A DNA stretch of 60,776 nucleotides, the filler included, from Hausera hauseri (Eukaryota): NCBI GenBank assembly GCA_046269625.1. It is 11 parts of 11 records of this genome, joined end to end, with 100 filler letters (N's around TTAATTAATTAA, not from the genome) between each part and the next. Parts side by side here need not be neighbours in the genome. Positions count along the whole stretch, not along the records: positions 23,268 to 30,417 come from JBJURY010035557.1; positions 30,518 to 34,698 come from JBJURY010716325.1; 9 more parts are not named here. The stretch is one strand, 5' to 3'. Made by a program: the position numbers and the translations under genes. The notes beneath the pieces are model-generated. The model was not told the DNA's origin. It saw only the letters and a list, made by a program, of their open reading frames with translations, and did no database searches. Below are positions 11,746 to 37,779 of this stretch, in pieces; position 1 is the first letter of the stretch, and every line of letters begins with the position of its first letter.

Positions 11746-11849
11746 AGCTAGGCTGGCTCTGTCTTTTGTTATCAAACTATTTCATATACTGGGGTGCTAC
11801 TGGCTTATGGCAGTTTAAGCGTTGCCACAGTATGATGCTTTCATCAGCA

Positions 11850-12065: not shown

Positions 12066-12714
12066 TAAAATAGGGCCAATCATAGATGTTTGTCTCTTTC
12101 TGATCTTACTGAAAATAACTCATTTAAAGAAAAACTTAACTGTGTAAAGTCAAGAATAAACATAAGAACATACAACTAACAACTTTAGCATTACGTCAGC
12201 AGCTAGAAAGTCGACAGGAAGGCAGTATCATGATCCCCGTGACTATTTCAAAGAATCAAAAGTCACTTTTATTCGGAAACCAAGACGTCTGACCTTTCAA
12301 CAATGTATCCCATTCGTATCGATGAGACTAGGTGCCCCATCACAACTGTCTCAGGATCGGTGAAAGGGGGGGGGGGGTATGTTTATAACAACCAATGAAA
12401 AATGATAACACCAGCTCTACATTCCCTTATAAGTTTTTGGCCCTGGTTGTGAGACTATTTTCTTTACTAAAGAGAAGGAGAAAAATTGACTTTCACATAA
12501 ATTCGCATCAAATGAAATCACTCAATAACGGAAGAACGTCATGTCTGTGAATCCTTTGATTTTACCCTCCCTTCTTCTTTTCCACTCCAGTATATTTTCT
12601 CCCGACTGGTACAACACCTTCCATGACAGTTGTTTGTTTATTTGTTTATTTGTTTACAAGATCACTTGATCTTGTGATTGAGCCACACTATTCTCGTTGG
12701 TTTTAGAAACTGGG

Positions 12715-16084: not shown

Positions 16085-19000
16085 TTTTTCGTTCTTTCCT
16101 TTGTTCGTTCGTTCTGTTTTTCTTTTCTCGTTCCTTTTGTCCATCGTTCCTTCCTTCGTTCCTTTATTCGTTCGTTCCTTCGTACGTTTTTCTTCTTTGT
16201 TCGTTCGTTCGTTCCTTTATTTGATAAGTCATTCTTTCATTCGTTTCTTTGTTCGTTCGTTCCTTCGTTTGTTCGTTCCTTCCTACGTTCTTTCCTTCTT
16301 TGGTTCATTCCTTCGTTCCTTCGTTCATTCGTTCGTTCCTTCGTTCGTTCGTTCATTCGTTCTTTCATTCGTTCGTTCATTCGTTCGTTCGTTCCTTACT
16401 ACGTTCGTTCCTTCTTTTGTTCGATCCTTCGTTCGTTCAATCCTTCGTTCGTTCCTTCTTTCGTCCGTTCGTTTCTTCGTTCGTTCGTTCCTTCGTTTGT
16501 TCCTTCATTCGATTATTCTTTCGTTCTTTCTTTCCTTCGTTTGATCGGTCTATCTTTCATTCGTTTCTTTGTTCCTTCTTTCTTTCGTTCGTTCTTCCTT
16601 TTTACGTTCTTTGCTTCTTTTGTACTTTCCTTCATTCATTAGTTCCTTCCTACGTTCGATCCTTCATTCCTTCATTCCTTCGTTCGCTAGTTTTGTCCTA
16701 CGTTCGGTCCTTCTTTCGTTCGAAATTTCATTCGTTCCTTTGTTTGATAAGTCATTCTTTCTTTCGTTTCTTTGTTCCTTCGTTCGTTCGTCCCTTCCTA
16801 CGTTCTTTCCTTCTTTTGTACGTTCCTTCATTCATTTGTTCCTTCCTTCCAACGTTCGTTCCTTCTTTCTTTTGTTTCTTCGTTCGTTCATTTGTTCATT
16901 CATTCTTTCCTTCATTCGTTCATTCCATCAACCATTCGTTTCTTCGCTCGTTCGATCCTTCATTCCTTCGTTCATTTGTGCATTGCATTACTCATTCATT
17001 CTTTCATTCTTTCGTTCCTTCATTCATTCGTTTTTTGTTTCGTTAGTTCCTTCGTTCCTTCTTTTGTTTGTTCTTTCGTTCCTTGGTTCATTCTATCCTT
17101 GGTAAATTCGTTCATTCCCTTCTTTGTTCCTTCATGCCTTTGTCCGTTCTTTCCTTCATTCGTTCATTCCTTCGTTCCTTTATACCTTCGTTTATTCGTT
17201 CCTTCCTTTGTTCGTTCCTTCTTACGTTCCTTCCTTCTGTCGTTCGTACCTTCATTCGTTCCTTCCTTCCAAAGTTCGTTTCTTCTTTCTTTCTTTCCTT
17301 CGTTTGTTCATTCTTTCGTTCGTGCTTTCCTTCATTCGTTCGTTCCTTCGTTCTTTCGTTTCTTATTTCGTTCGTGCCTTCGTTCGTTTATTCCTTTGTT
17401 CGTTTGTTCTCTCATTTGTTCCTTCGTTCGTTCTTTCTTTCGTTCATTCATTTCTTTGTTCGCTCGTTATTTCGTTCGTTCATTCGTTCGTTCATTCGGT
17501 CGTTCATTCTTTCTTCCCTTCGTTCTTTCGATCCTTTATACGTTCGTTCTTTCTTTCGATCGTACTTTCATTCAATCCTTCCTTCCAACGTTCGTTCCTT
17601 CGTTAATTCGTTCCTTCCTACGTCCTTTCATTCATTCGTACGTTCCTTCATTCATTCGTTTTTTCCTACGTTCGTTCTTTCTTTCTTTCGTTCCTTCCTT
17701 CGTTTGTTCGTTCGTTCGTTCGTTCGTTCGTTCGTTTCTTCGTTCGTTCGTTGCTTCGTTCGTTCATTCCTTCGTTCATTCGTTCCTTCATTCGTTCGTT
17801 CCTTTATTCGTTCCTTCCTTCCAACGTTCGTTCCTTTTTTCATTCGTTTCTTGGTTCTTTCATTCCTTTGTTCATTCATTCTTTCGTTCGTTCGTTCCTT
17901 GGTTCGTTCGTTCCTTCGTTCGTTCATTCGTTCGTTCCTTCGTTCTTTTCTTCATTCGTTCGTTCCTTCTTTCGTTCGTTTTTTTGTTTGTTCGTAACTT
18001 CATTCGTTCGTTCCTTCATAACTTCGTTCCCTCTTTCTTTCGTTCCTTCGTTCTTTCATTCCTTTGTTCATACCTTCGTTTGTTCGCTCGTGTCTTCGTT
18101 CGCTCATTTCTTTGTTCGTTCGTTCTTTCGTTCTTTTGTTCTTTTGTTCATTTCTTCATTTGTTCGTTCCGACTTTCGTTCGTTCTTTCGTTCGATCTTT
18201 CGTTCGTTCGTTCCTTCGTTTGATGGGTCCTTCTTTCGTTCAATCCTTTGTTTGTTCGTTCATTAGTTCGTTCATTTCTTCGTTCGTTCGTTCTTTCCTT
18301 CGTTCGTTCCTTCGTTTGTTCGTTCGTTCCTTCTTTTTTCCCTTTTTTCTTTCTTTCCTACTTTTGTTCAATCCTTCGTTCGTTCAATCATTAGTTCGTT
18401 CGTTTCTTCGTTTGTTCGTTCTTTCTTTCGTTCGTGCATTCCTTCTTTCCTTTGTACTTTCATTCATTCGTTCCTTCTATCATTCATTCTTTCCTTTGTT
18501 CTTTCCTTCGTATATTCGTTCTTTCTTTCGTTTGATCTTTCGTTCTTTCCTTTGTACATTCGTTCTTTCTTTCGTTCCTTCTTTCGTTCTTTTGTTCCTT
18601 CGTCAATTCATTCCTTCCTTTGTTCGTTCTTTCCTTTGTTCCTTCTTTCTTTCGTTCATTACTAAGTTCGTTCGTTCGTTTGTTCCTTCGTGCATTCGAT
18701 TGTTTCTTCGTTCGTTCCTCCATTCGTTCGTTCTTTCGTTCGTTCGTTCCTTCTTTTGATCGGTGCTTCTTTTGTTCGTTCTTTCGTTCGTTCATTCCTT
18801 CGTTCGTTCCTTCGTGCATTCGATCGTTTCTTCGTTCGTTCCTTCATTCGTTCGTTCCTTCGTTAGTTCGGNNNNNNNNNNNNNNNNNNNNNNNNNNNNN
18901 NNNNNNNNNNNNNNNNNNNNNNNNNNNNNNNNNNNNNNNNNNNNNNNNNNNNNNNNNNNNNNNNNNNNNNNTCCTACCTAAGTTCATTCCTTCTTTCATT

Positions 19001-22000
19001 CGTACTTTCATTCATTCGTTCCATCTTTCTTTCGTTCTTTCGTTCCTTCGTCCATTCGTTCTTTCCTTCATTCGTTCGTTCCTTCTTTTGATCGGTCCTT
19101 CTTTCGTTCGTTCTTTCTTTCGATCATTCCTTCGTTCGTTCGTTCGTGCATTCGATCGTTTCTTCGTTCGTTCATTCATTCCTTCGTTCCTTCGTTCGTT
19201 CGTTCCTTCTTTTGATCGGTCCTTCTTTCGTTCGTTCGTTCCTTCGTTCTTTCCTTTGTGCGTTCGTTTCTTCATTCTTTTATTCCTTTGTTCATTACTT
19301 CATTTATTCCTACGTTTGTTCTTTCTTTTGTTCGTTCTTTCCTTTTTTATTTCATTCCTTCATTCGTTCATTCCTTCGTTCGTTAACTCCTTTGTTCCGT
19401 CTTTTATTCATTCGATCGTTTCTTCATTCGTTTGATCCTTCGTTCGTTCGTTCCTTCGGTCATTCTGTCGTTCATTCGTTTGTTCCTGCGTTCGTTCATT
19501 CATTTTTTCGTTCCTTCGTTCATTCGTGCTTTCTTTCTTTCTTTCGTTTGTTCGTTTCTTTGTTCGTTCGTTCCTTCATTCTTTCATTCCTTCGTTTATT
19601 TGTTCGTTCATTCTCTCGTTCCTTCTTTCGTTCGTTTTTTCGTTTGTTTGATAGGTCAATCTTTCATTCGTTTCTCTTTTCGTTCGTTCTTTCCTTCCTA
19701 CGTTCCTTCCTTCTTTTGTACGTTCCTTCATTCGTTCGTTCCTTCCAACATTCGTACCTTCTTTCTTACTTTCCGTCGTTCAATCATTCTTTCGTTCACA
19801 CTTTCGTTCGTTCCTTCGTTTCTTCGTTCGTTCGTTTGTTCTTTCGTTCATTCCTTCGTTTGTTCTTTCTTTCATTCGTTCGCTCCTTCGTTAGTTCGGT
19901 CCTACCTAAGTTCATTCCTTCTTTCATTCGTACTTTCATTCATTCGTTCCATCTTTCTTTCGTTCTTTCGTTCCTTTGTCCATTCGTTCTTTCCTTCGTT
20001 CGTTCGTTCCTTCTTTTGATCGGTCCTTCTTTCGTTCGTTCTTTCGTTCGATCATTCCTTCTTTCGTTCGTTCGTGCATTCGATCGTTTCTTCGTTCGTT
20101 CCTTCATTCGTTCCTTCATTCGTTCGTTCGTTCGTTCGTTCCTTCTTTTGATCGGTCCTTCTTTCATTCGTTCGTTCCTTCGTTCTTTCCTTTGTCCGTT
20201 TGTTTCTTCATTTTTTCATTCCTTTGTTCATTACTTCATTTATTCCTACGTTTGTTCTTTCTTTTGTTTGTTCTTTCCTTTTTTATTTCATTCGTTCATT
20301 CGTTCGTTCGTTCATTCCTTCGTTCGTTCTTTTTTCATTCGATCGTTTCTTCATTCGCTCGTTCTTTCGTTCGTTCATTCCTTCGATCGTTCCTTCATTC
20401 GTTCGTTCCTTCATTCGTTCGTTCTTTCTTTTGATCGGTCCTTCTTTCGTTCGTTCCTTCCTTCGTTCTTTCCTTTGTCCGTTCGTTTCTTCATTCTTTC
20501 ATTCCTTTGTTCATTACTTCATTCATTCCTGCGTTCTTTCTATCTTTCGTTCGTTTTTTCCTTTTTTATTTCGTTCCTTCGTTCGTTCATTCCTTCGTTC
20601 GTTTATTCCTTCGTTCGTTTTTTTTTCATTCGATCGTTTCGTCATTCGTTCGATCTTTCGTTCGTTCCTTCCTTCGTTCGATCGTTCCTTTCTTCGTTCT
20701 TTCCTTCGTTCATTCGTCCTTTTTTTCGTTTCTTCCTTCGTTCTTTCATTCCTTTGTTTGATTTTTCTTTCGCTCTTCCAACGTTCTTTTCTTCTTTCTT
20801 TCGTTCCTTCCTTCTTTCATTGTTTCGTTCGTTCTTTCGTTTGTTCGCTCCTTTCTTTGTTTTTCATTCCTTCGTTCGTTCCATCGTGCATTCAACAGTT
20901 TCTTCGTTCGTTCCTCCATTAGTTCGTTCCTTCGTTCTTTCTTTCCTTCGATCATTTGTTCGTTCATTCATTAATTCCTTCGTTCATTCCTTTAGTGGTT
21001 CGTTCCTTCGTTCGTACCTTCCTTCATTCGTTCCTTCCTTCCTACGTTTTTACTTCTTTCTTTCGTTTTTTCGTTCATTCTTTCGGTCATTCGTTCTTTC
21101 ATTCGTTCCTTCATTCATTTGTTCATTTGTTCGTCCTTTCCTTTGCTTGATTGGTCCTTCTTTCGTTCGTTCTTTCTTTCCTTCGATCATTCGTTCGTTC
21201 ATTCATTAGTTCCTTCGTTCGTTCATTTATTAGTTCCTTCGTTTGTTCCTTCATTCGTTCGTTCCTTCGTTCGTACGTTCCTTCATTCGTTCGCTACTTT
21301 CTACGTTTTTTCTTCTTTCTTTCGTTCTTTTGTTTTTTCATTCGTTCGATCGTTTTTTCGTTCCTTCGTTCGTTTTTTCATTCGTTCGTTCCTTTATTTG
21401 TCCTTTCCTTCGTTTGATCGGCTTTCTTTCGTTCGTTTCTTTGTTCGATCGCTCCTTCGTTCGTTCCTTCCTTCCTACGTACTTTCCTTTGTTCGTACGT
21501 TCCTTCATTCATTCGTTATTTCCTACGTTCCTTACTTCTTTCGTTCGTACTTTCATTCGTTCTTTCTTTCCAACGTTTGTTTCTTCTTTCTTTCATTCCT
21601 TCGTTTGCTCATTCCTTCGTTCATTCTTTTTTTCGTTCTTTCGTTTCTTCGTTCTTTCGTTCCTTCGTTCGTTCCTTCATTCTCTCGTTTTTTCTACGTT
21701 CTTTCCTTCTTTCCTATATTCCTTCACTTGTTCCTTCGTTCCTACGTTCGTTCCTGCTTTCTTCCTTTCCTTCTTTCGTTCATTCCTTCGTTCGTTTGTT
21801 CCTTCTTACATTCGTACCTTCGTTCGTTCCTTCCTACGTTTGTACCTTCTTTCGTTCATACCTTCATTCGTTCCTTCCTTGCAGTCTTCGCTCCATCTTT
21901 ATTTCATTTTTTCGTTCGTTCATTCTTTCGCTCGTTCTTTCATTCCTTCGTTTGTTTTTTCGTCCGTTCGTTCCTTCGTTTTTTCATTCCTTCATTCATT

Positions 22001-23167
22001 CCTTCATTCAATCCTTCGTTCGATCGTTTGGTCGTTCTTTCATTCGTCCCTTCGTTCAACATTCCTTCTTTCGTGTGTTCCTTCTGTCGTTCGTTCCTTC
22101 ATTCTTTATTTCCTTCCTACGATCGTTCCTTCGTTCCTCCATTCTTTCGTTCCTTCTTTCCTTCGTTCATTCGTTCCTTCTTTCCTTCGTTCCAACTTTC
22201 TTTCTTTCCTTCTTTTATCCTTTCCTTCTTTCGTTTGTTCCTATGTTCGTTCTTTCGTTTCTTTGTTCGTTCATACTTTTGTTCGATTGTTCCTTCGTTC
22301 GAACCTTCATTCTTTTCTTCCTTCCATCTTTCGTTTTTTCTTTGTTCCGTTCCTTCATTCCTTTGTTCCTTTGTTCGCTCGTTCGTTCGTTCGTTCCTAC
22401 ATTTTTTCCTTCTTTCGTACGTTTCTTCATTCGTTCCTTCGTTCTTTCGTTCGGTTCTTCGTTCATTCTTTCGTTTATTCGTTTATTTCTTCGTTCTTTC
22501 GTTCCTTCGTTGCTTTATTCCTTCATTTATTTCTTTGTTCCTTCGTACCTTCGTTCGTTCCTTCATTCAACATTCTTTCTTTCGTTTGTTCATTCTTTCC
22601 TTCGTTCGTTCTTTCCTTCGTTCGTTCGATCCTTCGTTTGAACGTTTCTTCTTTCGTTGTTCGTTGATTCGTTCTTTCCTTCATTCGTTCGTTCCTTCAT
22701 TCATTCATTCGTTCCTTCGTTCTTTGATTCTTTCGTTTGATCGGTCCTTCGTTCGTTCGTTCATTCTTTCTTTCGTTTCTTCGTTCACTGTTTCCTTCTT
22801 TCGTTCGTTCCTTCGTTCTTTCGTTTATTTATTCGTTCTTTCCTTCCTTCGTTTGTTCTTTCGTTCTTTCATTCATTTCTTGGTTTGTTCCATCCTTGGT
22901 TCGTTCGTTCCTTCGTTCGTATTTTTGTTCATTCGTTCCTTCCTTTGTTCATTGCTTCGTTCTTTCGATTATTTATTCTTTCTTTCTTTACTTCATTCGT
23001 TCGTTCGTTCGTTCGTTCATTCGTTGTTTCCTTCGTTTGTTCGTTTTTTCGTTCTTCCTTCATTCGTTTGTTCTTTCGTTCTTTCTTTCATTCATTCGTT
23101 CGTTCGTTCGTTCGTTCCTTCGTTCGTTCGTTCGTTCGTTCGTTCGTTCGTTCGTTCGTTCGTTCGT
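16085..23167 (+). repeat. ~7-kb degenerate (TTCG/TTCC/TTCT/TTCA)n array with internal N100 gap (18872-18971)
   Basis: Strong 4-nt periodicity, pyrimidine-rich top strand, pure (TTCG)n at the right end. Confidence 0.98.
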
Positions 23168-24117
23168 NNNNNNNNNNNNNNNNNNNNNNNNNNNNNNNNN
23201 NNNNNNNNNNNTTAATTAATTAANNNNNNNNNNNNNNNNNNNNNNNNNNNNNNNNNNNNNNNNNNNNCGTTTTCATAAGTGCTTCTGCGTAAAAAATTGT
23301 TTCGCAAATGTTCATGTTGCAATGTTTGATGAGTATAAAATTGTTTTACTATATTTGGTGATAGAACTTAGGCAAAATATGGCGATTTCCGAAAATGTAA
23401 AAAAAACCGAAAGCATTAATGTGCAAAAGTTCAGTAAATTCCTCGACTAAGGGTTTTGTAAATTTGATGCATTTGTGAAGATGAAAACTTTTCGGATCAA
23501 ACGTTTCTTGAGATCTTCGTATTCCTTGTTGTGCACAAAGCCTAATGCTTAAAGCATACATGAAATGGAACTGGGATATTTGTTGGCATATTCATTAAGA
23601 AAGCTAATCTGTCTGGAATGCAAGCGTTCTTCAACATTGGAGTACAGCGCACAATAGGTCATTCATAAGTTGTTCTAACCATATAATAAAGAGTAATTAC
23701 CAAAATAAGAACTCAAGAAATAGAAACAAAGTCGCAAAGCATCATCCGGAGAAATAAAAAATAAGTTGGATATTGAAGAGCACAAAAGAATTAGTAAGTT
23801 GGAAAATGAATAGACAAAATAATAAAATAGGTATTTCGATGAAAACACTTTGCCGGTCATAGTATTTAAGATCAGACACATGGGATGAATCGTTTCCTAA
23901 TAAATCAGTGTTAACCCTCTCAGCTCCCCTCAAAAGCAATTTCGGATTCTTGGTGCTATACAATATTGAATATTGTACATAAATGCCTAATAGTTGTGTT
24001 AGGTTTAATTATTATCGATTGTCGCGCAATATTAACTACTCTTATTGGAAGATATCCGTTTTTAATGGGGCTAATGCTACAAGCAGCCTTTATTCCGTAT
24101 CTAGTACTTAAATTATT

Positions 24118-27100
24118 CTATGGTTCGAAAAGCATTACTCCATTGATAATATTTGGTGAATATCCTTGTATTAAATGTTCACTTGCGGGTTTCAGAATAA
24201 TTCCTTCTGGGATGATAACAACATTTTTACGGAGTTTTATAGTTGGAATTACTAACTGTCCAGTAGCTAAATTAAGATATCTACCTATGCATTGACGTTG
24301 TAAATCTAGTCCAATTATTACTTCTTCAATTAATTTATCAAATACCTTAAAGGTGTGTTTTAACCTTTTATTATAAATAATAATAGAAGTTGTCCAATAT
24401 CCAACTGGAAGTAGTTTATCTCCCCAACCTGATATAGTCGCTTTGTCAGACTTCCTTGGTGGTTCTACTTCTGTTTTAAATCTTTCAGGTATACTATCTA
24501 ATCGAATGATTGAGTCATCGCTCCCGGTGTCTACTAAGGCAAGTATATCCCAATCATCATGAATAGTAACTAAGGTATACGGACGTTTTGATCCCATTTT
24601 ATCCTTACTTGTTCGTAAAGCACACATGTGATTGAAGGAAGGTATTATAACATCAAGGTTTCCTTCACTGTTTGGATTGTTCACATTTCCATTATCATCT
24701 GGGTGTATTTCGGTTATAGTTACGTTTGTAGTTGGCTCTTTTAATTGCTTTCGTAATTGTTTATATTTAATATAGTCGGCTCTACTTCCTGAATATAACG
24801 CATCTACTTGTCTTTCTATCAAACTTTCAGTTTCAATTCTATTTAACGGTGGTATTGGTAGTCTCTTGTCTTTATATTCTCCAGCATACATCATTTTCGC
24901 CTGATGAGAGGTAAATGAAACGTTATGATATTCGACAGGATTATGAGCTCGCTGAGGGACTAACTGATAATCATTTGCTGCTATATTTTTCATAAACTTC
25001 ATTATTACGCTTCTATGCGTTGTTCGTACTTTAGGATTTTTTTTAACCTTTTTTTGTCGTTTCTTGCCAATTGTTACTTTTGTACTACCGTCAATATTAT
25101 CATCGTCATTCCCCTCACGATCACGCATACATTGCGCCATAAATGCATGTTGTACGCACTTCGCTAGCGGAGGACAAAGTGCTGTTAATAGTTTTTTTGA
25201 ACAGCCAAATAATTGAAAATTAATAAATCCGCTAGTAATTTGAGAGATGATGGTCCTCAAAATTTGAACTATAAAGTAGACAGCTAAGAATCCTGATGAT
25301 ACTTGGCCAAATGTCATTAGACCTCCCCACAACTTTTTAAATATCGTTTTTGCCGCTTTTGTAAAATGGTCCGGACTCAAAATGTTTTCCAAATTCGTTC
25401 TCCCATCTACTGTGTCCGTTATTTTTTGAGTGTATGACACCACTAATCTCTGGATTTGTTTTGGAAACAGTAAGTAACGTCGTAATTTTTCCATGCTAAC
25501 AGCGTCATATAGACCTCCTTGAAAAAAATTGACATTGTTATCGAAAATTAATTTCTTTTTAAACGCCAACATTATCAGTTTTTCAGGAGTTATCACTTTT
25601 GTACGAGATGGCAACGTTACCCAATGATCATGACCTATCTTAAATAATGGTGCAATATTTCTAATACATTCCTTTAGAATAGTTGGCTCTTCTGATGTTA
25701 ATAGCATCACCCTGGTTATTGGTGCAACATACCTCAATTTTCCAATATACTGTACTGCAATTTCGTTGGTACACGCTGTTGTATCCATTACCGGTACCTC
25801 CACTTCCCGACATTTAAATGTTAGTAGCCCTTCGCCTGTAGTTCTTGCAAATATCCCTTTTCCTTTAATTGGTAATATTGGTGTATCTATTGATGGATTA
25901 TGTGCTGCAACGGTAACTCTTAGGGCCAGAAGATCCTGCGAAATTAAACAATCATTTTGAATCATTTCTTTATATAACTGGTATTGATTATGAATCATAT
26001 AATGAAACAGGTAATCCATCTTTCCGTTGTAATATATAATGGGCTTTACTTCGGTAGGATGAATTTGTCTATTAGCTTTGTCTATTTCTTTTTCTGTGAT
26101 ATATATATCCTCTATATTCGTAGCATATACCTCCGTTTTACATTTATTTACTAGCTTCTTTCGTATTAATCGTATTGCATCTTGAGCTGTAGACATAAGA
26201 ACTGCTGGGGTTTCAATTTCTGCTAGCTTTTGTATCTCATCGTTTTGTCGCTCTTCGTGATCCCTTACTGGTTTTCCAAATCTTATTCCTTTCGTAATGT
26301 TAAATTTTACTTCCTTGAGGAAGGCCAAATTACACGTCGTAACACTGATTTCCCACGTAATTACTGAGTCAGTCGTATAACAGTACCCTCTACCATATGA
26401 ACAATCAGGCTTTACCATCAAATTTAGAGTATCCGCTTCGAAGGTTATCTCTTTATCCATTACTGTCCACGTATACAAATTTTGAACAACTAATCGGGAT
26501 ACTCCGTCTACCGTTTCACCTGTACATCCACCATCGGAATCCAACACACCCACCTCATTGATTGTTAAATATTTAATTCCATTTACAATAGTCTGAATTT
26601 CTACCTTGGAATTAATCCTTAATTTCCCAGTTTTTATTGCTTCCTTACAATCATCAGGTAAGACGCGTTGTGGTTCATCTGGTGAAGCCATTAATACATT
26701 AGTCGAATGATAATGCATTTTTCCACAATGCCACTTTTTGGTTTGCTTCGTGAGTCTACATTCGAACGCCTTTTTGCGGAAGAATTTATTTTCCTGATAT
26801 ATATAATATGTTGTTTCCGGTTCCGCAATTAACTTGTCTGGCTCTGCATCCGGACATTTCTCTAAGTCAACAAGTGAATATGTAGCACCGACTTCAGGAT
26901 TGTCACAATCAAATGCTTGAATGCTTTGTCCTTGAGGGATTTTCATAAAAAGGAATATTATAAGTAGGAGGCCCAACATTCCACTAATATCTACTTTTGA
27001 CGGTAATTTAAACATTCCTTCTAGATATCGAGTAGTTTCTAATGTTTTCCTTATTAGACTTTCACTAGTCTTTCGTTCTGTCTTCGATCTCCTCTGGTGG

Positions 27101-27144
27101 CCTAATTGTGTGTTGGAAATCAAATAATCTATCCCATCCTCCAA
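24118..27144 (-). CDS. Envelope glycoprotein-protease fusion ORF (signal 26923-26979; G to ~25140; cytoplasmic linker; protease ~24255-24590; dUTPase-like spacer continuing past the TAG to ~23975)
   Basis: MLGLLLIIFLF..SIQAFDCD..YSLVDLEKC, ECRLTKQTKKWHCGKMH, YVAPITRV, GGLYD..MEKLRRYLLFP, LWGGLMTFGQVSSGFLAVYFIVQILRTIISQITSG..LFGCS..LLTAL (chuvirus-G-like pattern); uninterrupted to ALVDTGSDDSII...VIIGLDL. Confidence 0.88.
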   Translation of the reverse strand: MEDGIDYLISNTQLGHQRRSKTERKTSESLIRKTLETTRYLEGMFKLPSKVDISGMLGLLLIIFLFMKIPQGQSIQAFDCDNPEVGATYSLVDLEKCPDAEPDKLIAEPETTYYIYQENKFFRKKAFECRLTKQTKKWHCGKMHYHSTNVLMASPDEPQRVLPDDCKEAIKTGKLRINSKVEIQTIVNGIKYLTINEVGVLDSDGGCTGETVDGVSRLVVQNLYTWTVMDKEITFEADTLNLMVKPDCSYGRGYCYTTDSVITWEISVTTCNLAFLKEVKFNITKGIRFGKPVRDHEERQNDEIQKLAEIETPAVLMSTAQDAIRLIRKKLVNKCKTEVYATNIEDIYITEKEIDKANRQIHPTEVKPIIYYNGKMDYLFHYMIHNQYQLYKEMIQNDCLISQDLLALRVTVAAHNPSIDTPILPIKGKGIFARTTGEGLLTFKCREVEVPVMDTTACTNEIAVQYIGKLRYVAPITRVMLLTSEEPTILKECIRNIAPLFKIGHDHWVTLPSRTKVITPEKLIMLAFKKKLIFDNNVNFFQGGLYDAVSMEKLRRYLLFPKQIQRLVVSYTQKITDTVDGRTNLENILSPDHFTKAAKTIFKKLWGGLMTFGQVSSGFLAVYFIVQILRTIISQITSGFINFQLFGCSKKLLTALCPPLAKCVQHAFMAQCMRDREGNDDDNIDGSTKVTIGKKRQKKVKKNPKVRTTHRSVIMKFMKNIAANDYQLVPQRAHNPVEYHNVSFTSHQAKMMYAGEYKDKRLPIPPLNRIETESLIERQVDALYSGSRADYIKYKQLRKQLKEPTTNVTITEIHPDDNGNVNNPNSEGNLDVIIPSFNHMCALRTSKDKMGSKRPYTLVTIHDDWDILALVDTGSDDSIIRLDSIPERFKTEVEPPRKSDKATISGWGDKLLPVGYWTTSIIIYNKRLKHTFKVFDKLIEEVIIGLDLQRQCIGRYLNLATGQLVIPTIKLRKNVVIIPEGIILKPASEHLIQGYSPNIINGVMLFEP

Positions 27145-28987
27145 TTCTTTTTATGTCTACGGATAAATAATTCTTTGTAATCTCGGCAGCAACATCGAGC
27201 CCCATCTCAATTTCTTCTCTATTTTGAGCGGAATTTTTTACTCTCATTAAAAGAAATACCAAAATTGTGATCACTCTATCTTTCGTGAATTCCCCAGTTT
27301 TTATCCACCTTTGAATGACGTCTCCATCATCTATGGAATCTATTTTATTTGGTAATTGTTCATTCAGAACAACTTGTTTCAATCGTTGCAAAGCCCGTCG
27401 TAACTGTTCTTCAATATCTAAATCACACGGTTTCTCACATAATTGAATTGCTTCCTCTTCAAACAACACATTATAAATCTTCCATAATATGGACCTAATT
27501 TGTCGGATCTCTGGATCCATAATCTTAATTTCGCTTTTGCGTAACCCTCTGGTTAAGGTATCCACCTTAACCTGTTGTAATAAATTTTTCGGCGGTCTCC
27601 CTGGTGGTTTTTTATCAGTTTGTGTTTGATGGTGCTCAGTTTCTAAATCAGTCAAGTCTTGTACTTCCGAAAATACTTGCAGTGGTTCTGGGGTGATTAA
27701 TTCTTCAGACTGATGTTCCGGTCCATTCCTCACCTTCAATGGTCTCACTACTTCAGTCAAGGCCAAAACACTTTTAATTTGTTTTTCTAGCTCTTTTTCA
27801 TTGTCTTTGTTAGTTTTCCTATGTTCATCTATATGTATAATGACAATTTCATCCGCGTCCATTTCTGGTACGATACCCAATTCTGACCATGTAATACTTG
27901 CATCATCTGTCTTTCTACCCATAAATTCCACAGTTATAGTCCCAGTATTTTCATTCCCATAATATTTTCTATAGTAACTCTCGACTGTTTGGAGTGTCTG
28001 CCAAATCGTATCCAATGGATTTATCATAATTTCCAAATCATCACTTTTTGATCCAATTCGCATTTGAAATTTGACTAAAATTTCTTTTTGACAATTAAAA
28101 GTTTTAAACTTATCCTTATGTGAAAACATTTGTAGTATTAATCTCGCCATGTCCCTTCTCGGACAATTATCCGCAGCCTGCTGTACTAAAAATGGTCTAA
28201 TTTGCAAAAATCTTGCCCTTTCATCAGTAACCCATTCACGTATTTTGTATAATTGGTTTAAGCCGGCCGTCATTATTCCATCATCTTTCTCGTTTCCTTT
28301 AATAATTTCTACCAATGTTTTAAAGGCATTTTCCTGCCATGCTATATCCAATTCATAGTTGATTTCGCGACTTCCTTCCAACGATATCGATGGAGTGTCT
28401 ACATCTTCTTCTAATACTAATATACTTATGTCATTCTCTTGAACTTTCACGTCATTTCTTTTAACTACCTTTTGAATTAGGTGTTCCTCTAATTTATTCT
28501 TTAAGGATACAGCCTGATTATCTTGAATATTCTTCAGCCTTTGAAATTGATTCTTAACATCATCCCGTTCAAGCGTTAACCGTTTTATTTCTAGAAGCAA
28601 CTGGTCATTCGACATGTACAATTCCTGGGAACTATTTAAATCTAAAGGTACATCTAAATACTCCTTTATTTCTGTATCATTTATTTCCGGAACATTCAGC
28701 ATTTGTCGATGATTCATGATTTCGTCTTCGACAAATACCAAATTGTTACTATATATCTCTGAATCAGACTGCATAATAGATAAATTACTGGTTCCAGTTA
28801 TCAGCGGGCACACCTTCGCCAAATGTCCTGATTGACCACAATTAAAGCAATTTTTATGTTTCTGCAATACTGGTTGCTGTACTAACGATTGGGTTGTCAT
28901 TAATTGCTGCACTGGCATTTGCAATGGACATCTTTTAGATGTGGCCCCACTGACCACAAGTATTACATTGTTTCGGTGTTTGAACAT
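27065..28987 (-). CDS. Gag C-terminal extension: CCHC knuckle, coiled coil, Ubl (27827-28084), AT-hook-like (27584-27613), Bcl-2-like (27116-27520)
   Basis: CFNCGQSGHLAKVC; ILVKFQMR..LEIMINPLDTIWQ..ITVEFMGRKTDD..TWSELGIVP..IVIIHI; KKPPGRPPK; GEFTKDRVITILVF (BH1-like) and YLSVDIKRIGGWDRLFDF (BH2-like). Confidence 0.75.
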   Translation of the reverse strand: MFKHRNNVILVVSGATSKRCPLQMPVQQLMTTQSLVQQPVLQKHKNCFNCGQSGHLAKVCPLITGTSNLSIMQSDSEIYSNNLVFVEDEIMNHRQMLNVPEINDTEIKEYLDVPLDLNSSQELYMSNDQLLLEIKRLTLERDDVKNQFQRLKNIQDNQAVSLKNKLEEHLIQKVVKRNDVKVQENDISILVLEEDVDTPSISLEGSREINYELDIAWQENAFKTLVEIIKGNEKDDGIMTAGLNQLYKIREWVTDERARFLQIRPFLVQQAADNCPRRDMARLILQMFSHKDKFKTFNCQKEILVKFQMRIGSKSDDLEIMINPLDTIWQTLQTVESYYRKYYGNENTGTITVEFMGRKTDDASITWSELGIVPEMDADEIVIIHIDEHRKTNKDNEKELEKQIKSVLALTEVVRPLKVRNGPEHQSEELITPEPLQVFSEVQDLTDLETEHHQTQTDKKPPGRPPKNLLQQVKVDTLTRGLRKSEIKIMDPEIRQIRSILWKIYNVLFEEEAIQLCEKPCDLDIEEQLRRALQRLKQVVLNEQLPNKIDSIDDGDVIQRWIKTGEFTKDRVITILVFLLMRVKNSAQNREEIEMGLDVAAEITKNYLSVDIKRIGGWDRLFDFQHTIRPPEEIEDRTKD

Positions 28988-30146
28988 ATGGTAGAGTTAC
29001 AACTGGAGCTTGTATAAGCAACGGGCGTGATTTAGCGATGTGACCAAACTGTTTGCAGTTATAAAATTGAATTTGACATTTAATATTAACATTTTCACGC
29101 TCCATAACTGCCACAATATTAGATGAACCTTGTGCGTTCAACGATCGTAACGGGTATTGATGTGTCGGTCTTACATTACTAATCGGTTGTGTCATCTTCA
29201 TTCTATTAGGAGCTGCGCCCGTAGCCATCGCATTAGTTAATGGTGGACCATTTGGTCTCATCATAGGGAAAACCACTGATGGATTAGACTGTGGAACCTG
29301 TTGTTGAGGTGTCCTAAATTCAGGTCTCGTTGTCCATTGTGGCTGGGCATAAACCCATTGTTGTTGTTGCCTTTGAACTCAAGGTCTTTGAACCCCAAAT
29401 TGTCCTGATCGTATTGGTTGGTTGATCCTACGATTTCCACAATATTGATTGGATCTTACATTCATAATTGGTGCACGCAATATTACAGATGTATTGGCGT
29501 TATCTACAGGTTTTATCACAGCATTTCCCGGGATAGTCTTCTGAATTATTTGATTCATTTTAGCATCTACATTCTTCTATGCAATAGCCCGTTTCACCAA
29601 GTCCCCAAAGGTAAAAGCTTCACTTTCAATAAGACGACTTTGAACCTTCGGGTTCCTTAATCCCGTTATGAAACAATCTACTAAGATGGGTTCCGTCTCA
29701 AACACTTTTCTTTCTCTTGAAGATTCGTTTTTAATTCTATCTTCCGTTTCTAGTGCCAGTTTGTAACGCTTCACTAATGCTTGTAAAGCTAATGCAAACA
29801 TATTAACCGATTCACCTACTTGCTGAGTCCGTGATCTTAAATTTCGTAGACGTGCGTTAGCTGACGAATCCGGATCAATATACTTTTTTAATTTTTCAAT
29901 AACTTCCTTCAATGTAAAATCTTCCTTATCTTCAATCTGAAGATATGCCTGCAACGCGACTCCTAAGTACGTGACTAGTTTCCCAATTTTCTCATTATCC
30001 TTCCATTCCAGGCCATATGCCTGAGCATCTTACATGAGAATAAAATCGTCGAATCTAGTGGGATCACCAGCATAACGTTGCAAATTTAATCCAGCATACA
30101 ATTGAGTCGTATTCTTCTTAAAATCCGTTTCTGAATCTTTACTCAA
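28935..30146 (-). pseudogene. gag: Retrotransposon Gag (capsid, Q/P-rich linker, two degraded CCHC knuckles)
   Basis: LQRYAGDPTRFDDF..AYGLEWKDNEKIGKLVTYL..RTQQVGESVNMFALAL..FITGLRNPKVQSRL; FYNCKQFGHIAKS and CNTCGQWGHI/SKRC. One frame with premature stops. Confidence 0.85.
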
Positions 30147-30316
30147 ATCTTTCCTTAACCAAGAATCAAACAAATATATAATTTTAAAATCCGTCCTGAC
30201 CAATAAACCCTTCTTCGTAAATCAAATACTTTCAAAATCAAGTAGACAAATTCAAATTACAACAATCTTGGAGAAATAATGGAATCTATTTATTTTAAAA
30301 TATTTCAAACAATACT

Positions 30317-30412
30317 CAATAGACAAGTAAACTTCAACAAAACCGTTCACTTATAGTTACTTCAAATAACGTTCAATAGACAAGTAAACTTTTGATAAAA
30401 CTGTTCACTTAA
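30317..30412. repeat. Two-copy ~57-bp direct repeat in the 5' leader of copy B
   Basis: CAATAGACAAGTAAACTT..AAAAC.GTTCACTTA at 30317 and 30374. Confidence 0.8.
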
Positions 30413-33400
30413 TATTANNNNNNNNNNNNNNNNNNNNNNNNNNNNNNNNNNNNNNNNNNNNTTAATTAATTAANNNNNNNNNNNNNNNNNNNNNNNNNNN
30501 NNNNNNNNNNNNNNNNNAATTCATTCACTTTCGTGTCTTAAATGAATAAAAATGTCTTCAGATTATTATGCTCATTTATGAATTTTGAGAATATGGTTGT
30601 TTTGTATATATGGCTGACAACACGAACAACAAATTCAATGACACAACTTGATAAGTTATTATTTGTCTCATAGCTGCAACATGAAAATTTTAACTGAAGT
30701 AAGTTGTAGCGCTGCAGTATAAGACACGACCACGGTTTCCGGCAAAAATGGCCACCGATAAATACCCCTTAAACCGATGTGGGCTTTTGAGTGTGGTCGC
30801 CGCTCTCCGGTCCTTGCTCGTTGGCGATCAAAGTGGTCAATCATCAAACTCAAAGTTTCAAGAGAACAACGCATCAAAAAGTGATATTTAAATTTGCAAT
30901 ACTTTTCATTTTTTTATTCAAAGCATCAAACCCACGTCAATACAAAAATTTCGATAAGAAATCGCTTTCACGTTACGGAAGACAAAAACGCATTATTTGA
31001 GTTTAGCTTCCAAAAACATTTTTGCACCAAATCCTTTCCGTTAATCATAATTCCCGATCAGATCAACTAAAAATTTTTATCAGAATATGTCGATCCGAAT
31101 TCGTTAAGTATATCAGAAAACATCACGGATTTTCATACAAACATAAGTTCAAAGAAAGAACTCGTAAAATCGTCTGAAAATTCATAAAATAAACTATATT
31201 TTTGCTCAGATTCGTATATTTATTACTCCTCAGAAATTCAAATTCTCATTTCTTCTCCTCAAATCAGTAAAAATCATTCATTTAATCGAGGGTCTGATCA
31301 TCAACGAAAGTTAATAATAAAAGTCTTTAAACAAATTGTAAATATAATTTTTCCATTAGTTTATCGGTAGAGTAAAATTGCTTTTTGTGATTTGAGTTAA
31401 AGTAATACGAATAAGTTTTGTTGGTGTTTCGAAATACCCCTTGTACAACAATGCATCCATATCATTTAACAAAGGAACCTTTTTTATTTAATAAGTCCAA
31501 ATCGAATGAATCCTGGTAAATATCGAGCATAATATATCCAACAAATTTGTTTAATGCGTTAAAAGCTTTGAAATCCAGAAAAGTTTCATTTAAATTAAAA
31601 AAACTATTTACAGATGTCTACAACTATTAAAACAAAAGTTATTGAGCTTTCTTCCAATCTGTTCTTTTATTGAATTTCAAAATTATATAGCATTATGCTA
31701 TAATATATATACACACAGATGACTAGTGCTGAACTTAATTAATAAGGCCATTATACTGTAGAGCAGTACGATAAAAAATAAAAGATAAAGTTACAAAATA
31801 TCATCATTTATATTTTGCTAATATATGTGGAGTGTACCATATTGTAAAACAATAAAATAGTGAAATATCTTCGTTTTCCAATTGCTGAAATGCACCAAAT
31901 TGAAAACCAGATCTACCGCATTATCCACAAAGAATCTTAATGAAATCTGTTACTGTAAAGAGATCGATGTACGCCTGTAGTATGCTGTTCCAAGTGAATG
32001 CCACACAGATTCCATTATAAATCAATGCATAAAATGCCCTTTTAACATTTTCGAATTATCAAACACAACTAATTTATTGTTGTCCGCTACCAAATCGTAA
32101 CAAGAATGATTTTCGAAGAGAATTTGAATGCCTTATTTCTGTCAGAAAATCCATGAACTGTTACGGTACTTTGCGGCCGATTTCGGTTGGCTAGTCAATT
32201 TTCTTTGACAATTACAAATTTGTCTTTGTCGCTCGAATGTGGAGAATTTCGCATTTCCTTCTTCATTTCACAATAAGATTCCAAAAATAAATTTCCAAAC
32301 ACAAACAGTAATTTAAAACTATTTGAAACTGTTTGGAAATACTTCGTGACACAAATGTAACATGAGGTACAAATGTGTATACGACTATAGCCGGTTAAAA
32401 TGTATTGCGTATTCTTTATTGTTCTACTGTCGTCGATTATCTAAAATAGCGTTTACCATCTAATATAGTTTTGTTACTAACTCCCAATGTAGGCATTTCA
32501 GATTGATGCAGTTTTGTTAAACAATCCTCGAATGATGCAGCAGAGGAATCGTTTATGGGATATTTATTGGGAACGTTTGTAATTTCTGGGTTGATTGGTA
32601 GTTTAACCTGTGAGATCGGTGGAAACTCGACTATCAGAACTATAATGGGCGGTTGTTTTGATTGGGAACTCCACAAACGACCGCATCCTCAAACGAGAGA
32701 AATCGGATCAGACCTGCAAAACGATCGAAGCGAGGTCGTCGTCCCTGACTGTGCCCGGCTAGAATGGGCCAAAGGGGGACAACGCGATCTGGCACCACAC
32801 GGACAGTCTAAATAATGAGGATGCCAGAAATATTCTACGAATAACCTCACTGAAAAAATCTTATCCAAATCTGACAATTGTCGTCCAACCGCTGCAATAT
32901 GATAAAAAGTACAACATTCTAAACATTTGCAGTTGAAATAAATAAAATGGAAATGGCATAATCTGCTAGTGAAATAAATTTGGGCTTTTGTCCAAGAGTT
33001 GTTTAGTTCCAGGCCATACGACGTTCATATCAAATTTGTTCTCTCTGAGATACAAAAAGAAATGTCAATTATATCGAAATACAAAATGCCTATAGATGAA
33101 TGCATATCTAGATGGACTAAAAATGCAATTGTATCGAGTAAAAGTCTCATCGAGTTTATACAGAATGACATTTCAGGAACTGAATGTATTTTGCTACTGG
33201 AGTAGGTAGAAGGGAGATCACTGCTTCAGTCACCCCTCCAAGGGAAGCAGAAATGAAGTGGTTCGCGGATGAGTCATGGGGTAAAAAACGATACAAACAC
33301 GGTTAATAAGGCATAGATAGGAGGCACACAGTCATTAAAGTGATACACACAATCACGCGTACTGTATGGATTCGGAGTGGTTAAAAAATTTGAATTTCGC

Positions 33401-33571
33401 GAGCAAAAATTTATTTGTTTTAATTTCGGTTTTGGCGCAGTGTGATTGGTCGGTTTGTTTAAATTTTGGCAGCGAACAAAGCATTTTCTGCTGCACATTG
33501 AGTTTCACTATTCCACCCTACTTTATTTTAATTTTTTTTAAATACCGCTGTGTAAGTGTCACTTATGAAAA

Positions 33572-33844
33572 ATGTCTCAGCCATATATCTTGGCATCATT
33601 TAAATTGAATGCTCTTTCTGCTGTAGAATATTTTAATACTGTGGAAAAGTTGTGCGTACAATTGAAAAACATACAAAATAGAAGAATGGAGTCAAAGTTT
33701 GTATGTGTAGTATGTAAAGAAAATAAGGTAGATACGGTATTCCTAATGTGTGGCCATCTGGTATTATGTCAGATATGTTCAAAGTTAAGTCATTGTCCTG
33801 AGTGTAAATGCGCTATAACTGGAAGTGTACATATTTACTATTAA
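33572..33844 (+). CDS. Small protein with C-terminal IAP-type (C3HC4) RING finger
   Basis: CVVCKENKVDTVFLMCGHLVLCQICSKLSHCPECKCAITGSVHIYY*; AATAAA overlaps the stop. Confidence 0.85.
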   Translation: MSQPYILASFKLNALSAVEYFNTVEKLCVQLKNIQNRRMESKFVCVVCKENKVDTVFLMCGHLVLCQICSKLSHCPECKCAITGSVHIYY

Positions 33845-33896: not shown

Positions 33897-34698
33897 TGAA
33901 TAATGTCTATATGCGACACTTACTTTTTCTGGATCCACATATTTCATCATCAAACGGATCCAATGCTTTCTTTTCTGATCCCATTGTCATAAGCTGATGA
34001 TTTGTGGTCCAATTCGCTCCTGGTCCACCATAGTCGCACAACCGGTTTCGTATGCTTGTAAGTAGCTGTTGAACTGTAAATCAGTCTGTTTCAGATTAAT
34101 ACACTTGCATTTGAGGACTGATTTGCTTTGGATTTTCAATGCGTAGGATTTCGGCCGTAGGAAAATACCCTCTTAATACTCGACATACCCCTTACTCTCA
34201 ACCTTAAATTTGCCTATTATCGCTGCGAAACGAGTTTAGTACAGTGGATCACTCTTATCATAGTTTGACGTATTTAACTGCTCGTTTGCTATCATTGCCT
34301 ATAAGAATTGTGATTTTAAGTCAACACCATGGCATTCAAGGACTAAACTGTCTGTGTCACCAGCAATAATATTAAATTCACAATTAAACTGTTGCTTATA
34401 CGTCTCAAACTCGATATAATTCAGCTCATACACCCGTAACTTGGATAGATCAAGTACGGCCTGACCGATGTATGAGAGTCTGTCTAAAGTAACTATGTCC
34501 TTATCGAGGAGTACGGCAACAAAGTCATCGGCTATAATAATACTTTCCTTAAACTGTGCCTTACTTGCGTATGTAACAAGTTTTCTTGCCTTATTGCACA
34601 GTCTTAAATTTGACCTTTTCAATAAATTCTCAACAGTCTTACCATGTAGACTATTATTCTTTAACTTAAAAAAGTCCTTCTCAAAAGAATTATTTGCT
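33897..34698 (-). pseudogene. Polinton/adintovirus-type pPolB, C-terminal fragment
   Basis: FEKDFFKLKNNSLHGKTVEN, YIGQAVLDLSKLRVY, AGDTDSL, IGKFKVE, FLRPKSYA, KKALDPFDD; several stops. Confidence 0.9.
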
Positions 34699-34798: not shown

Positions 34799-37774
34799 TA
34801 TCTAAAAGAGAGCTTGACAGTCGTACCTCTGCTGGTTTACCCAAATACCAACAAGGAATACGTATTATACACCGACGCATCTGACTTTGCCGTAGGTGCA
34901 GTATTGGTGCAGAAAGACAGTGAAGAGACGGTACAAGGAAAGAGAGTCGACAGGGAGAAACCAATATACTTCTTGTCACATAGATTGACCAAATCCCAAC
35001 GCAAATGGTCGGTGACTGAAAAAGAAGCATATGCAATCCACTTTGCACTGCAGAAATTGAACTTTTATTTGCATAATAGCAAATTCACTATTAGAACAGA
35101 TCATATGCCGCTAAAAGCCATGATGAAAGCCGACGTACAAAACAAAAGAATACAAACCTGGATATTAAATTTACAAGGATACAACATGAACATTGAATAC
35201 ATTCCAGGATTGCAAAACACAATTGCAGATCTTTTGTCAAGACTACCAGAGAAATGTAATAATTATGAAGATCCACATGAAGTAAACGATGAAGAAGGTA
35301 CCCCAGAAATAGATGAGCACACACTTCAAATTTCAGCTGTTAGTACCACTGAAAAGAAAGCAAACGAGACAGGAGAATCAGAAACAGAATCCGGTGACGA
35401 AGATAAGAACAGAATAAATATGAAAACCGAACAAATGAAAGATGAAGAATTAAAGAACATCATAGAAGATCTACAATCAGGGGTAGAAGAGAAGTTAAAG
35501 AAGTGGAAAAAGTTCATGCTGGATGATGAAGAACTATACAGGGTAGGCAGTGAAGGGAAAAGAAATTTTCAACTATGTATACCCCAACATTTGAAAACTT
35601 GGGTAATGCAGGAACATCATGATAAAATGGGACACCTAGGTAGAGACAGGACGGCAGAACTGATCAGCCGGAAATACTACTGGAAAAACATGCTGTCAGA
35701 AATAGGAAACTATGTAAAGAATTGTGAACCGTGCAAGTTGAGAAATATGGAAGTGCTAAAACACCCTATCCAGGAGCCGGAATACGCAAACTTCCCTATG
35801 GAGAAAGTGAGTCTCGACTTATCCGGACCTCACCCATTGACAGTATCTGGGAACCAACATATTCTGCACATAGTGGACATTTACAGCGGTTGGCCCGAGT
35901 TATACGCGGTGCCTGATAAAACTGCAGAGAATATTGTTGATATTCTAGTAGGAAAGTTTATAACGAGATATGGATGTCCTAAAATCATCGTGACGGATAA
36001 CGGCAGAGAGTTTGTGAACCAGGCAATGAGAAACACACTAAAAGAATTAAACATCAAACACGTACGAACGTCCGTATACAATCCAGGCGCCAATGGAGTG
36101 AATGAAAGGCAACATTCTACACTGTATGATGTCATCTCAAAGTATACTAAAGACCAACCCAAGGAATGGGATATGCATTTGAGTAAGGCAGCAATGGTAG
36201 TTCGAATCATGGAAAATGGCAGCCGAAAGTATTCTCCTTATGAAATGTTATTTGGAAGGGAGCCGACTTTACCAATTGATAACCTACTGAAGCCAAGATT
36301 AAAATACCAAGGGGAAGAATTTCACAAATACCAAATCCAAAAGTTACATGAGATTACAGTGAAAGTCAGCAGAAACGTAAGAGAGGCCTTTCAAAAGAGG
36401 AAAAGGTATAGTGAACCAAAGACTGTCCAACAAGATTTCGAGATTGGAGATAAAGTTTATTATCGCAAGAACAAGAAGAGCTCGAAACTTGAAAACAACT
36501 GGGTACCAGGTTACAAGATCCTAGAAAAGAAAGGACCGATTACATACGTGGTAGTGAACCAACAAACAGGGCATGAAGCCACAACCACCACAAGTCTACT
36601 TAGAAGAGACAATCGAACCTTCCCAGAGGAACCAAAAATAGAAAATAAGAACAATATGCGAAAGTCGAAGTATGTCGTACCACCGAAAAGTGAAAACGAT
36701 TCAGAAACATCAAGTCAAACTGAAGAAGAAACATCTGATGAAGAGAGTGATAGTGATACGAGATATGAAATAGCGATTCCATATCAAGTCGGAAGAAAAA
36801 CGCAAAAGAGATGTGAAATCGAACCAAAAACAGATAAGGAAACGAACACTGAAGCACCTTACCAAAATACAAGGGCAGCGGCTAGGAAAAGATTTGAAGA
36901 AGCTAGGGCCCAACAATTAAAAAGAAGAAGAGCTGTCCGAAGCAACTCATCGGAAGAGAGCGACATCCCATACTTAGAAAGGAAAAGACGATTAGAAGAT
37001 AGGGAACGAAGAGAAGCTCAGGAAACACAAGGGGACGATGAAGAAACACAGAATGACTTGGAAAGCAGCAGCTCGGAAACCTTAGTGGAAGACACCGAAA
37101 CTGAAACATCCGAACTAGACCAAATGGTCAAAAGACTGAAGAGGTTAAGAGATTCGAGTACATCAACTGAAGACGAACCTAGAGCCAAAATCACCAGACA
37201 AGCAGAACTGAGAAGAAAATATGTGGCTGAAGAAGCGAGAAAGAAACGAGAAAGGGAAAGAAGACAAGCAGAAACTCGAATCGAAGAAATACGAAAAACA
37301 ATAGATGGAAAAGACAAAGAAGTACAAGAAGTAAAAGCAGCCATAGGAAAATTAACCGAAGACAAAAAGGCAGTCGATATGAAAGTTAATGAGTTAAGAG
37401 ACAAAGTAAAAGAAGCAGAAAGCCAGTCGGCCCAACTGGAAAAAGAAAATGCTGAAAAAACAGAAATTATAACAAAGTTAAGGAAGCAGTTGGCAGAAAT
37501 AATTAGTCAAAAGGAGCCACCATGTATTGTAAGGGAGAAAAGTGTGAAGCATAATAAACAGAGAGAAGAAGAAGATATGGAAAATGAAGTTACAGAAGAA
37601 CGGGTATATGATAAAAGTCGTCCAAAAATAACAACAGAAGTGGAAGAGAAGCTACTGGGTATAAAACAACCTGAGCGAGCAATAGCGGTAGTAGAAAAAG
37701 CAGCGGGTAGGACAGAATTGAAAGATGATAGTGTCATGAAACTATTATTGCAAACGATGTTGAAGTTGGCGTAA
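34799..37774 (+). CDS. pol: Pol: RNase H + integrase with long acidic/coiled-coil tail (5' truncated by spacer)
   Basis: LYTDASDFAVGAVL, WSVTEKEAYAI, IRTDHMPL, IADLLSR; HHDKMGH..CEPC; SLDLSG, VTDNG, NGVNER; PGYKILEK. Confidence 0.95.
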   Translation, partial: YLKESLTVVPLLVYPNTNKEYVLYTDASDFAVGAVLVQKDSEETVQGKRVDREKPIYFLSHRLTKSQRKWSVTEKEAYAIHFALQKLNFYLHNSKFTIRTDHMPLKAMMKADVQNKRIQTWILNLQGYNMNIEYIPGLQNTIADLLSRLPEKCNNYEDPHEVNDEEGTPEIDEHTLQISAVSTTEKKANETGESETESGDEDKNRINMKTEQMKDEELKNIIEDLQSGVEEKLKKWKKFMLDDEELYRVGSEGKRNFQLCIPQHLKTWVMQEHHDKMGHLGRDRTAELISRKYYWKNMLSEIGNYVKNCEPCKLRNMEVLKHPIQEPEYANFPMEKVSLDLSGPHPLTVSGNQHILHIVDIYSGWPELYAVPDKTAENIVDILVGKFITRYGCPKIIVTDNGREFVNQAMRNTLKELNIKHVRTSVYNPGANGVNERQHSTLYDVISKYTKDQPKEWDMHLSKAAMVVRIMENGSRKYSPYEMLFGREPTLPIDNLLKPRLKYQGEEFHKYQIQKLHEITVKVSRNVREAFQKRKRYSEPKTVQQDFEIGDKVYYRKNKKSSKLENNWVPGYKILEKKGPITYVVVNQQTGHEATTTTSLLRRDNRTFPEEPKIENKNNMRKSKYVVPPKSENDSETSSQTEEETSDEESDSDTRYEIAIPYQVGRKTQKRCEIEPKTDKETNTEAPYQNTRAAARKRFEEARAQQLKRRRAVRSNSSEESDIPYLERKRRLEDRERREAQETQGDDEETQNDLESSSSETLVEDTETETSELDQMVKRLKRLRDSSTSTEDEPRAKITRQAELRRKYVAEEARKKRERERRQAETRIEEIRKTIDGKDKEVQEVKAAIGKLTEDKKAVDMKVNELRDKVKEAESQSAQLEKENAEKTEIITKLRKQLAEIISQKEPPCIVREKSVKHNKQREEEDMENEVTEERVYDKSRPKITTEVEEKLLGIKQPERAIAVVEKAAGRTELKDDSVMKLLLQTMLKLA

Positions 37775-37779
37775 AAGTA

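Follow-up and report, generated by a model that had tools for sequence, protein, structure and literature searches.

A decayed and probably Burro-like retroelement of Hausera hauseri with Bcl-2-like cargo and a chuvirus-like env between gag and protease

Introduction

One 7150 bp contig of the Hausera hauseri assembly (GCA_046269625.1) carries gag, several accessory (cargo) domains, a chuvirus-like env and a protease on a single strand, raising the question of whether this locus represents a new retrovirus-like system, as a first-pass annotation proposed, or a kind of element that is already known. The window, by which we mean the whole stretch of 60,776 nucleotides that was analyzed, consists of separate contigs joined by N spacers, so adjacency across a spacer carries no meaning; the element occupies the whole contig at positions 23268-30417, on the minus strand. 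We conclude that it is very probably a defective copy, shortened at its 3' end, of a multi-copy LTR retrotransposon with env that likely belongs to the Burro-like lineage of Ty3/gypsy; in intact relatives, a single frame encodes cargo, env, protease and Pol. Because this architecture has already been catalogued (PMC6431247; PMC13524379), the proposal of a new system falls, and the element is a divergent new member of a kind whose layout is published.

Results

Organization of the element

Along the minus strand the order is Gag, CCHC knuckles, four-helix domain, ubiquitin-like domain (Ubl), GRP motif, Bcl-2-like domain, env and retropepsin (Table 1), distributed over a stop-broken gag frame and two open reading frames of 643 codons (28996-27065) and 1010 codons (27150-24118). 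The shorter of these contains the zf-CCHC match with E 3.5e-5, the Ubl, the GRP motif and the helical domain ending in GGW, and the longer is common to env and protease. Domain calls and frames both support the gag-cargo-env-pro order, with env between gag and pol, that had been read from this strand. The four-helix domain before the Ubl is conserved and was overlooked in the first reading.

Table 1. Coordinates of the features of the element, and of a second element in the window.
Feature	Position	Strand	Evidence and remarks
Leader upstream of gag: two 34-nt direct repeats, 57 nt apart	30301..30391	.	85% identical
Gag capsid region	29580..30071	-	phmmer to relatives' Gag N-termini; stop inside at 30032-30030
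Three CCHC knuckles	28800..29066	-	Pfam zf-CCHC E 0.0014 and 3.5e-5; translations
Conserved four-helix domain, no family found	28100..28360	-	AF2 helices 14-99, block pLDDT 71-88; alignments A4, A5
Ubiquitin-like domain, internal, without C-terminal Gly-Gly	27824..28081	-	A4 profile against PDB; Foldseek
AT-hook-like GRP motif	27587..27613	-	Pattern search; kept upstream of env in relatives
Bcl-2-like helical domain, BH2-type GGW at its end (~27125)	27122..27520	-	phmmer, Pfam on relatives, PDB profile, Foldseek
Hydrophobic signal-like segment of env	26920..26994	-	Hydropathy 2.19
Env: Monjiviricetes (chuvirus-like) fusion glycoprotein ectodomain and TM	25237..26913	-	Pfam PF24664
Retropepsin (DTG at 24537)	24298..24582	-	Pfam RVP E 3.3e-4; in env's open frame
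PR-RT spacer (position of Burro's dUTPase-like domain)	23935..24297	-	Stops at 24120 and 23958; phmmer
Second, diverged, decayed element	4114-10119	-	Helical, Ubl, Bcl-2-like, env, PR, start of RT

On its own the Gag region is not recognized by Pfam, and the capsid assignment of the first-pass annotation is upheld by homology to N-terminal Gag sequence in three relatives (P0008, E 1e-10; P0017, 6e-10; L002, 6e-5; phmmer). The gag frame shows no start codon, and two further stops (29579 and 29381) follow the capsid region. All three of the CCHC knuckles described earlier could be located, although a single one, at 28849, is intact (Pfam E 3.5e-5); a frame change splits the knuckle at 28967, and that at 29066 is degenerate, with two Cys lost. 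A repeat search found no LTR inside the contig, which ends at 30417.

The cargo domains

The cargo of the element was aligned with that of eight relatives and of the second window element (alignment A4), and the resulting profile was searched against 177,635 PDB sequences; every one of the 60 PDB rows shown is of Ubl type or Bcl-2 type. Among the ten A4 members, Pfam recognized Bcl-2 in four (best 2e-5) and ubiquitin in two, and the window's own cargo protein alone had no Pfam match for either domain. A profile of the cargo from which the two window rows had been left out covers the window cargo over 2-400 of 404 positions (E 3.4e-17). AlphaFold on A4 gave a model of mean pLDDT 65 and pTM 0.41 with the four-helix domain, a beta-grasp, a helical bundle and low-confidence linkers; single-sequence AlphaFold of the window cargo gave a poor fold (pLDDT 36). 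With the A4 model, Foldseek found no PDB match at E ≤0.001 (its E-values were 0.005-0.03), and the listed rows are mostly UBLs (TM by target ≤0.79) and Mcl-1/Bfl-1. In the viral library it matched ubiquitin-like proteins as well as herpesviral Bcl-2s. For the Bcl-2-like domain the ESM Atlas yielded no usable match, and for the helical-Ubl part of L002 a single lead below 0.9 with a ubiquitin family.

The earlier Ubl and Bcl-2-like assignments both stand. The UBL of ubiquilin-2 matches at A4 positions 86-153 with E 3.8e-6 in the profile search of the PDB, and the Get5 UBL was matched by Foldseek with a TM(target) of 0.79 and an rmsd of 2.7 Å. For the Bcl-2-like domain the scores are moderate and agree across methods: phmmer to P0017 (E 2e-7) and P0006 (1e-4), Pfam on relatives, Bcl-xL at A4 positions 322-389 in the PDB profile search (E 0.009), and Mcl-1/Bfl-1 in Foldseek (TM(target) 0.48-0.58). 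HMMER aligns one BH1 position with the Gly of Bcl-xL, and 0 of 8 rows have Gly there. Bcl-2 and Bcl-xL require this Gly to bind BH3, although some viral Bcl-2s can bind BH3 peptides in its absence.

An AT-hook-like GRP motif is present and is conserved before env; six of the 17 relatives examined have it there, two of these coming from a single cluster. It has no Pfam AT-hook match, and its core is PGRP, whereas the canonical core is RGRP. The four-helix domain has nothing significant in Pfam, and no TFIIS-N or LEDGF-IBD appears among the 50 Foldseek rows listed. A likeness to TFIIS-N/LEDGF-IBD, which we had considered, thus gained no support, and a three-row profile matched only coiled coils in the PDB.

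Env, protease and spacer

Env matches PF24664 (Monjiviricetes_fusion) over 5-637 of 653 positions with E 1.1e-73, and contains 14 Cys between the signal-like segment and the TM at 25302-25237; together with hydropathy, this supports the signal peptide, Cys-rich glycoprotein and C-terminal hydrophobic region previously noted. An env profile matched 0 sequences in the PDB, and one relative has a weak Glycoprotein_B match (E 0.014). The DTG protease is likewise recognized by Pfam (Table 1). Beyond it, the spacer matches the PR-RT spacers of P0005, P0151, P0154 and L001 (phmmer, E 1e-9 to 8e-6); no Pfam match to the dUTPase family was found in the spacer of the window element or of the relatives examined.

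Breakage of the copy

Five in-frame stops and two frame changes interrupt the copy, one of the latter lying between the Bcl-2-like domain and the env signal segment. Family homology ends at ~23935, before RT, where run X1 shows a drop in depth and loose ends (23932-23954), and beyond this point other run X1 contigs continue with unlike sequence. As the contig extends ~660 bases past the end of homology, the copy is truncated or interrupted before RT and not merely cut by the contig end. RT, RNase H, integrase and LTR are all absent from it, and its gypsy class therefore rests on relatives. The copy cannot replicate alone. The gag-to-protease layout that had been described is real, although the description mentioned neither the stops and frame changes nor the loss before RT.

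Relatives of the element

A full HMMER search with the env-PR ORF returned 939 relatives at E ≤0.001, of which 150 were listed, and a metagenome scan added three further loci (L001-L003); word-index homolog searches gave no match, and no locus of the family was found in viral contigs. The window env is only ~30-35% identical to the long relatives. Env, PR, RT, RH and IN are in one frame in P0004, P0005, P0010 (to RH), P0013, P0016, P0151, P0154, L001 and L003, the pol order PR-RT-RH-IN being met in relatives and only PR in the window copy. P0017 carries Gag, CCHC, helical, Ubl, GRP, Bcl-2, signal segment and env in one frame, and a single polyprotein of L001 runs from Ubl to IN. L002 has the same Gag-to-env order as P0017, with a single TGA (3058-3060) between the Gag-to-Bcl-2 ORF and the env signal segment.

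In run X1, 1127 contigs, mostly 85-99% alike, cover 23985-30198 without gaps, cargo included. The copies differ in length at both frame changes, which fits copy-specific damage. Run X2, with a small share only, was left out of the evidence. The cargo-env cassette recurs in at least 8 diverged relatives. The second element in the window has an env about 26-34% identical and a different helical or coiled-coil region upstream (8924-10118).

An env tree (a quick maximum likelihood search of 47 rows with long branches, 28 of them unlabelled, several labelled rows N-terminally incomplete and P0012 labelled from its cluster-mate P0154) places 14 of 14 cargo-labelled rows within one 16-row branch (SH-aLRT 98), which holds 0 of the 5 no-cargo rows. 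Eight of the 14 have Bcl-2, four have Ubl without Bcl-2, and in two the GRP motif alone was seen. The cargo of the relatives is modular, Bcl-2 being present or absent beside a common helical-Ubl unit.

Several relatives have features of their own. The 3426-codon ORF of L001 (2-10279) includes several retropepsin copies, with hydrophobic surface-protein-like segments both within Pol and after it, and downstream of it is an RNase T-family exonuclease ORF (10617-12104; E 1.4e-5). In P0151 (4844 aa), one frame joins env and Pol to seven retropepsin-like stretches, as well as to ankyrin repeats and C2H2 fingers. The env-Pol polyprotein P0004 (HBK71150.1) is deposited as part of a Flavobacteriaceae MAG and is most likely animal DNA binned into it.

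Other features of the window

A gypsy element in the usual order lies at 34799-39783 on the plus strand, with RNase H, integrase, a long charged tail and a 683-codon env-like ORF; this ORF has, by eye, a furin site, a fusion peptide and a C-terminal TM of F type, and no significant Pfam match. Two decayed gypsy copies, ~80% alike, occupy 48796-58082 on neighbouring contigs in opposite orientation, an apparent inverted repeat that results from contig joining. Positions 16088-23167 are a 7-kb degenerate TTCG microsatellite array, the source of long spurious ORFs. There are also fragments with matches to RNA polymerase Rpb1 (48029-48502; Pfam E 2e-12), a C3HC4 RING (33569-33844; Pfam 9e-10), a Tc5 transposase HTH (42937-43458; Pfam 5e-10) and, weakly, DNA polymerase B (34302-34697; Pfam 0.018).

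Discussion

Alternative interpretations

Could env or the cargo be a separate insertion, or a captured host fragment, in one gypsy copy? The frame changes that flank the cargo ORF on both sides would suit such an event, which we nevertheless consider hardly credible. There are no terminal repeats at the env or cargo borders (the longest repeats, 34 nt direct and 27 nt inverted, lie elsewhere), env is in frame with PR, and the cassette is shared by the diverged relatives and covered by the multi-copy family in run X1; the single-frame relatives P0017 and L001 refute the idea. A nested env with its own termini is ruled out in the same way, env being continuous with PR-RT-RH-IN in one frame in relatives. 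The frame change that follows the Bcl-2-like domain is very unlikely to be a site of programmed recoding that sets the ratio of Gag to Env-Pol, as opposed to a lesion. The in-frame TGA of L002 at the corresponding junction could be either a lesion or a read-through site, and a 1:1:1 polyprotein would be an odd ratio for a particle. P0002, P0006, P0009, P0017 and L001 are open across the junction, however, making five of the seven rows in which the domains on both sides of it are intact; moreover, one run X1 contig differs in length at the Bcl-2/env junction, and the window copy is broken elsewhere too.

An independent retrovirus-like lineage that converged on the gag-Ubl-Bcl2-env-pro layout of Burro seems most improbable to us. 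GAG-ENV-POL elements are not monophyletic according to PMC13524379, and the modest identity of the window env to the long relatives, together with a comparison to Burro by description alone, leaves some room for convergence. On the other side, seven domains follow each other here as they do in Burro (PMC6431247), domain I-II motifs of the cargo-bearing env branch recur, by eye, in six Schmidtea env rows in the eLife supplement, and P0151 resembles Burro in having ankyrin repeats. A damaged member of a Burro-like lineage remains our preferred reading.

Proposed topology and cargo functions

In intact members, a single polyprotein may cross the membrane twice. Gag and the cargo, which precede the env signal segment, would remain cytosolic; the internal signal segment, recognized from hydropathy, would direct env to the lumen of the ER, and at the env TM the chain would return to the cytosol, such that PR-RT-RH-IN would begin as the cytoplasmic tail of env. 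Pol would then be delivered to the budding membrane via env and not via a Gag-Pol frameshift. Signal peptidase and retropepsin are the presumed agents of cleavage, the latter freeing Pol from the env tail, and the env signal segment may also serve as the kind of tail anchor found after BH2 in Bcl-2 proteins.

Host cell death or innate signalling is the likely target of modulation by the Bcl-2-like domain. Receptors of the ubiquitin pathway are the likely partners of the Ubl, which would not be conjugatable, and the GRP motif likely binds AT-rich DNA. A more specific proposal, which we offer as speculative and rather unlikely, is that the lineage has its own chromatin tether, made of the four-helix domain and AT-hook and loosely like the LEDGF adaptor borrowed by lentiviruses, and that the Bcl-2-like domain, without the BH1 Gly in 8 of 8 rows, would be a poxvirus-style blocker of innate signalling anchored by the env signal segment, and not a BH3 sponge.

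Comparison with known systems

Mosquito BEL/Pao elements with a chuvirus glycoprotein (Dezordi et al. 2020) share the PF24664 glycoprotein and differ in their BEL/Pao Pol; in our env tree, shorter proteins presumed to be of this kind fall outside a 23-row polyprotein branch. Nematode endogenous retroviruses (Sacco et al. 2022, as cited in PMC13524379) also have env before pol in a metavirus, although their hosts are nematodes. Closer are the GAG-ENV-POL Ty3/gypsy elements whose env is of the HSV/gB type, from Platyhelminthes, Bryozoa and Nematoda (Chary & Hayashi, PMC13524379), which have both the gag-env-pol order and the chuvirus/gB-type glycoprotein seen here. Six of them come from S. mediterranea (Smed_errantivirus_1-6, env group Platyhelminthes_C1a), and their env rows share, by eye, Y-[IV]-Y-Q-E...E-C...C-G motifs with the window family. 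That paper mentions no cargo by name: the strings 'Bcl' and 'ubiquitin' do not occur in its main text, and in its seven supplements neither 'ubiquitin' nor 'AT-hook' appears, while a lone 'bcl' string there is irrelevant. PMC5408684, PMC13238120 and PMC11410931 provide context on the topic only.

The closest likeness is to Burro/GYPSM1 of planarians, reported to encode Gag, two to three CCHC knuckles, a Ubi2/SUMO-like domain, BCL-2, an in-frame env, PR, a dUTPase-like domain and RT (Arkhipova & Yushenova 2019, PMC6431247), with Burro1-4/GYPSM1 in Schmidtea mediterranea and a Burro-like element in Dugesia tigrina (PMC6431247, citing Jurka 2007 and Grohme 2018). BURRO1 transcripts are under SMEDWI-2 control (PMC8532177). 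Likened through this published description, the element agrees in its seven domains and their order: Gag with knuckles, Ubl before Bcl-2, Bcl-2 directly before env, and a mononegavirus-like env that sits after BCL2 and before PR, sharing the frame of the latter. The Gag-to-integrase polyprotein of Burro is broken here and is found in parts in two relatives, from Gag to env in P0017 and from Ubl to IN in L001. The window element is compact, at ~6.2 kb from Gag to PR. Burro is giant (>30 kb) with long LTRs. The MATH, BIR and ankyrin domains of Burro1 have no Pfam match between Gag and PR here, the 3' half being missing; this excludes Burro1 itself and not the wider lineage, since ORF1 of the D. 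tigrina element also is without MATH (PMC6431247).

Interference with host apoptosis and ubiquitination has already been suggested for these elements in PMC6431247, and with the layout in print since 2019 and the copy dead, the locus carries little weight as a discovery. The AT-hook-like motif, the four-helix domain and the BH1 without Gly are undescribed in the texts searched; for Burro, the GRP motif and the four-helix domain of the window element are unnamed in PMC6431247 ('AT-hook' occurs there 0 times). The interest of the locus is in its relatives, which point to two parts without a description in those texts (the AT-hook-like motif and the four-helix domain), and in a lineage that would appear to pack env and Pol, with a Bcl-2 fold, into one membrane-spanning chain.
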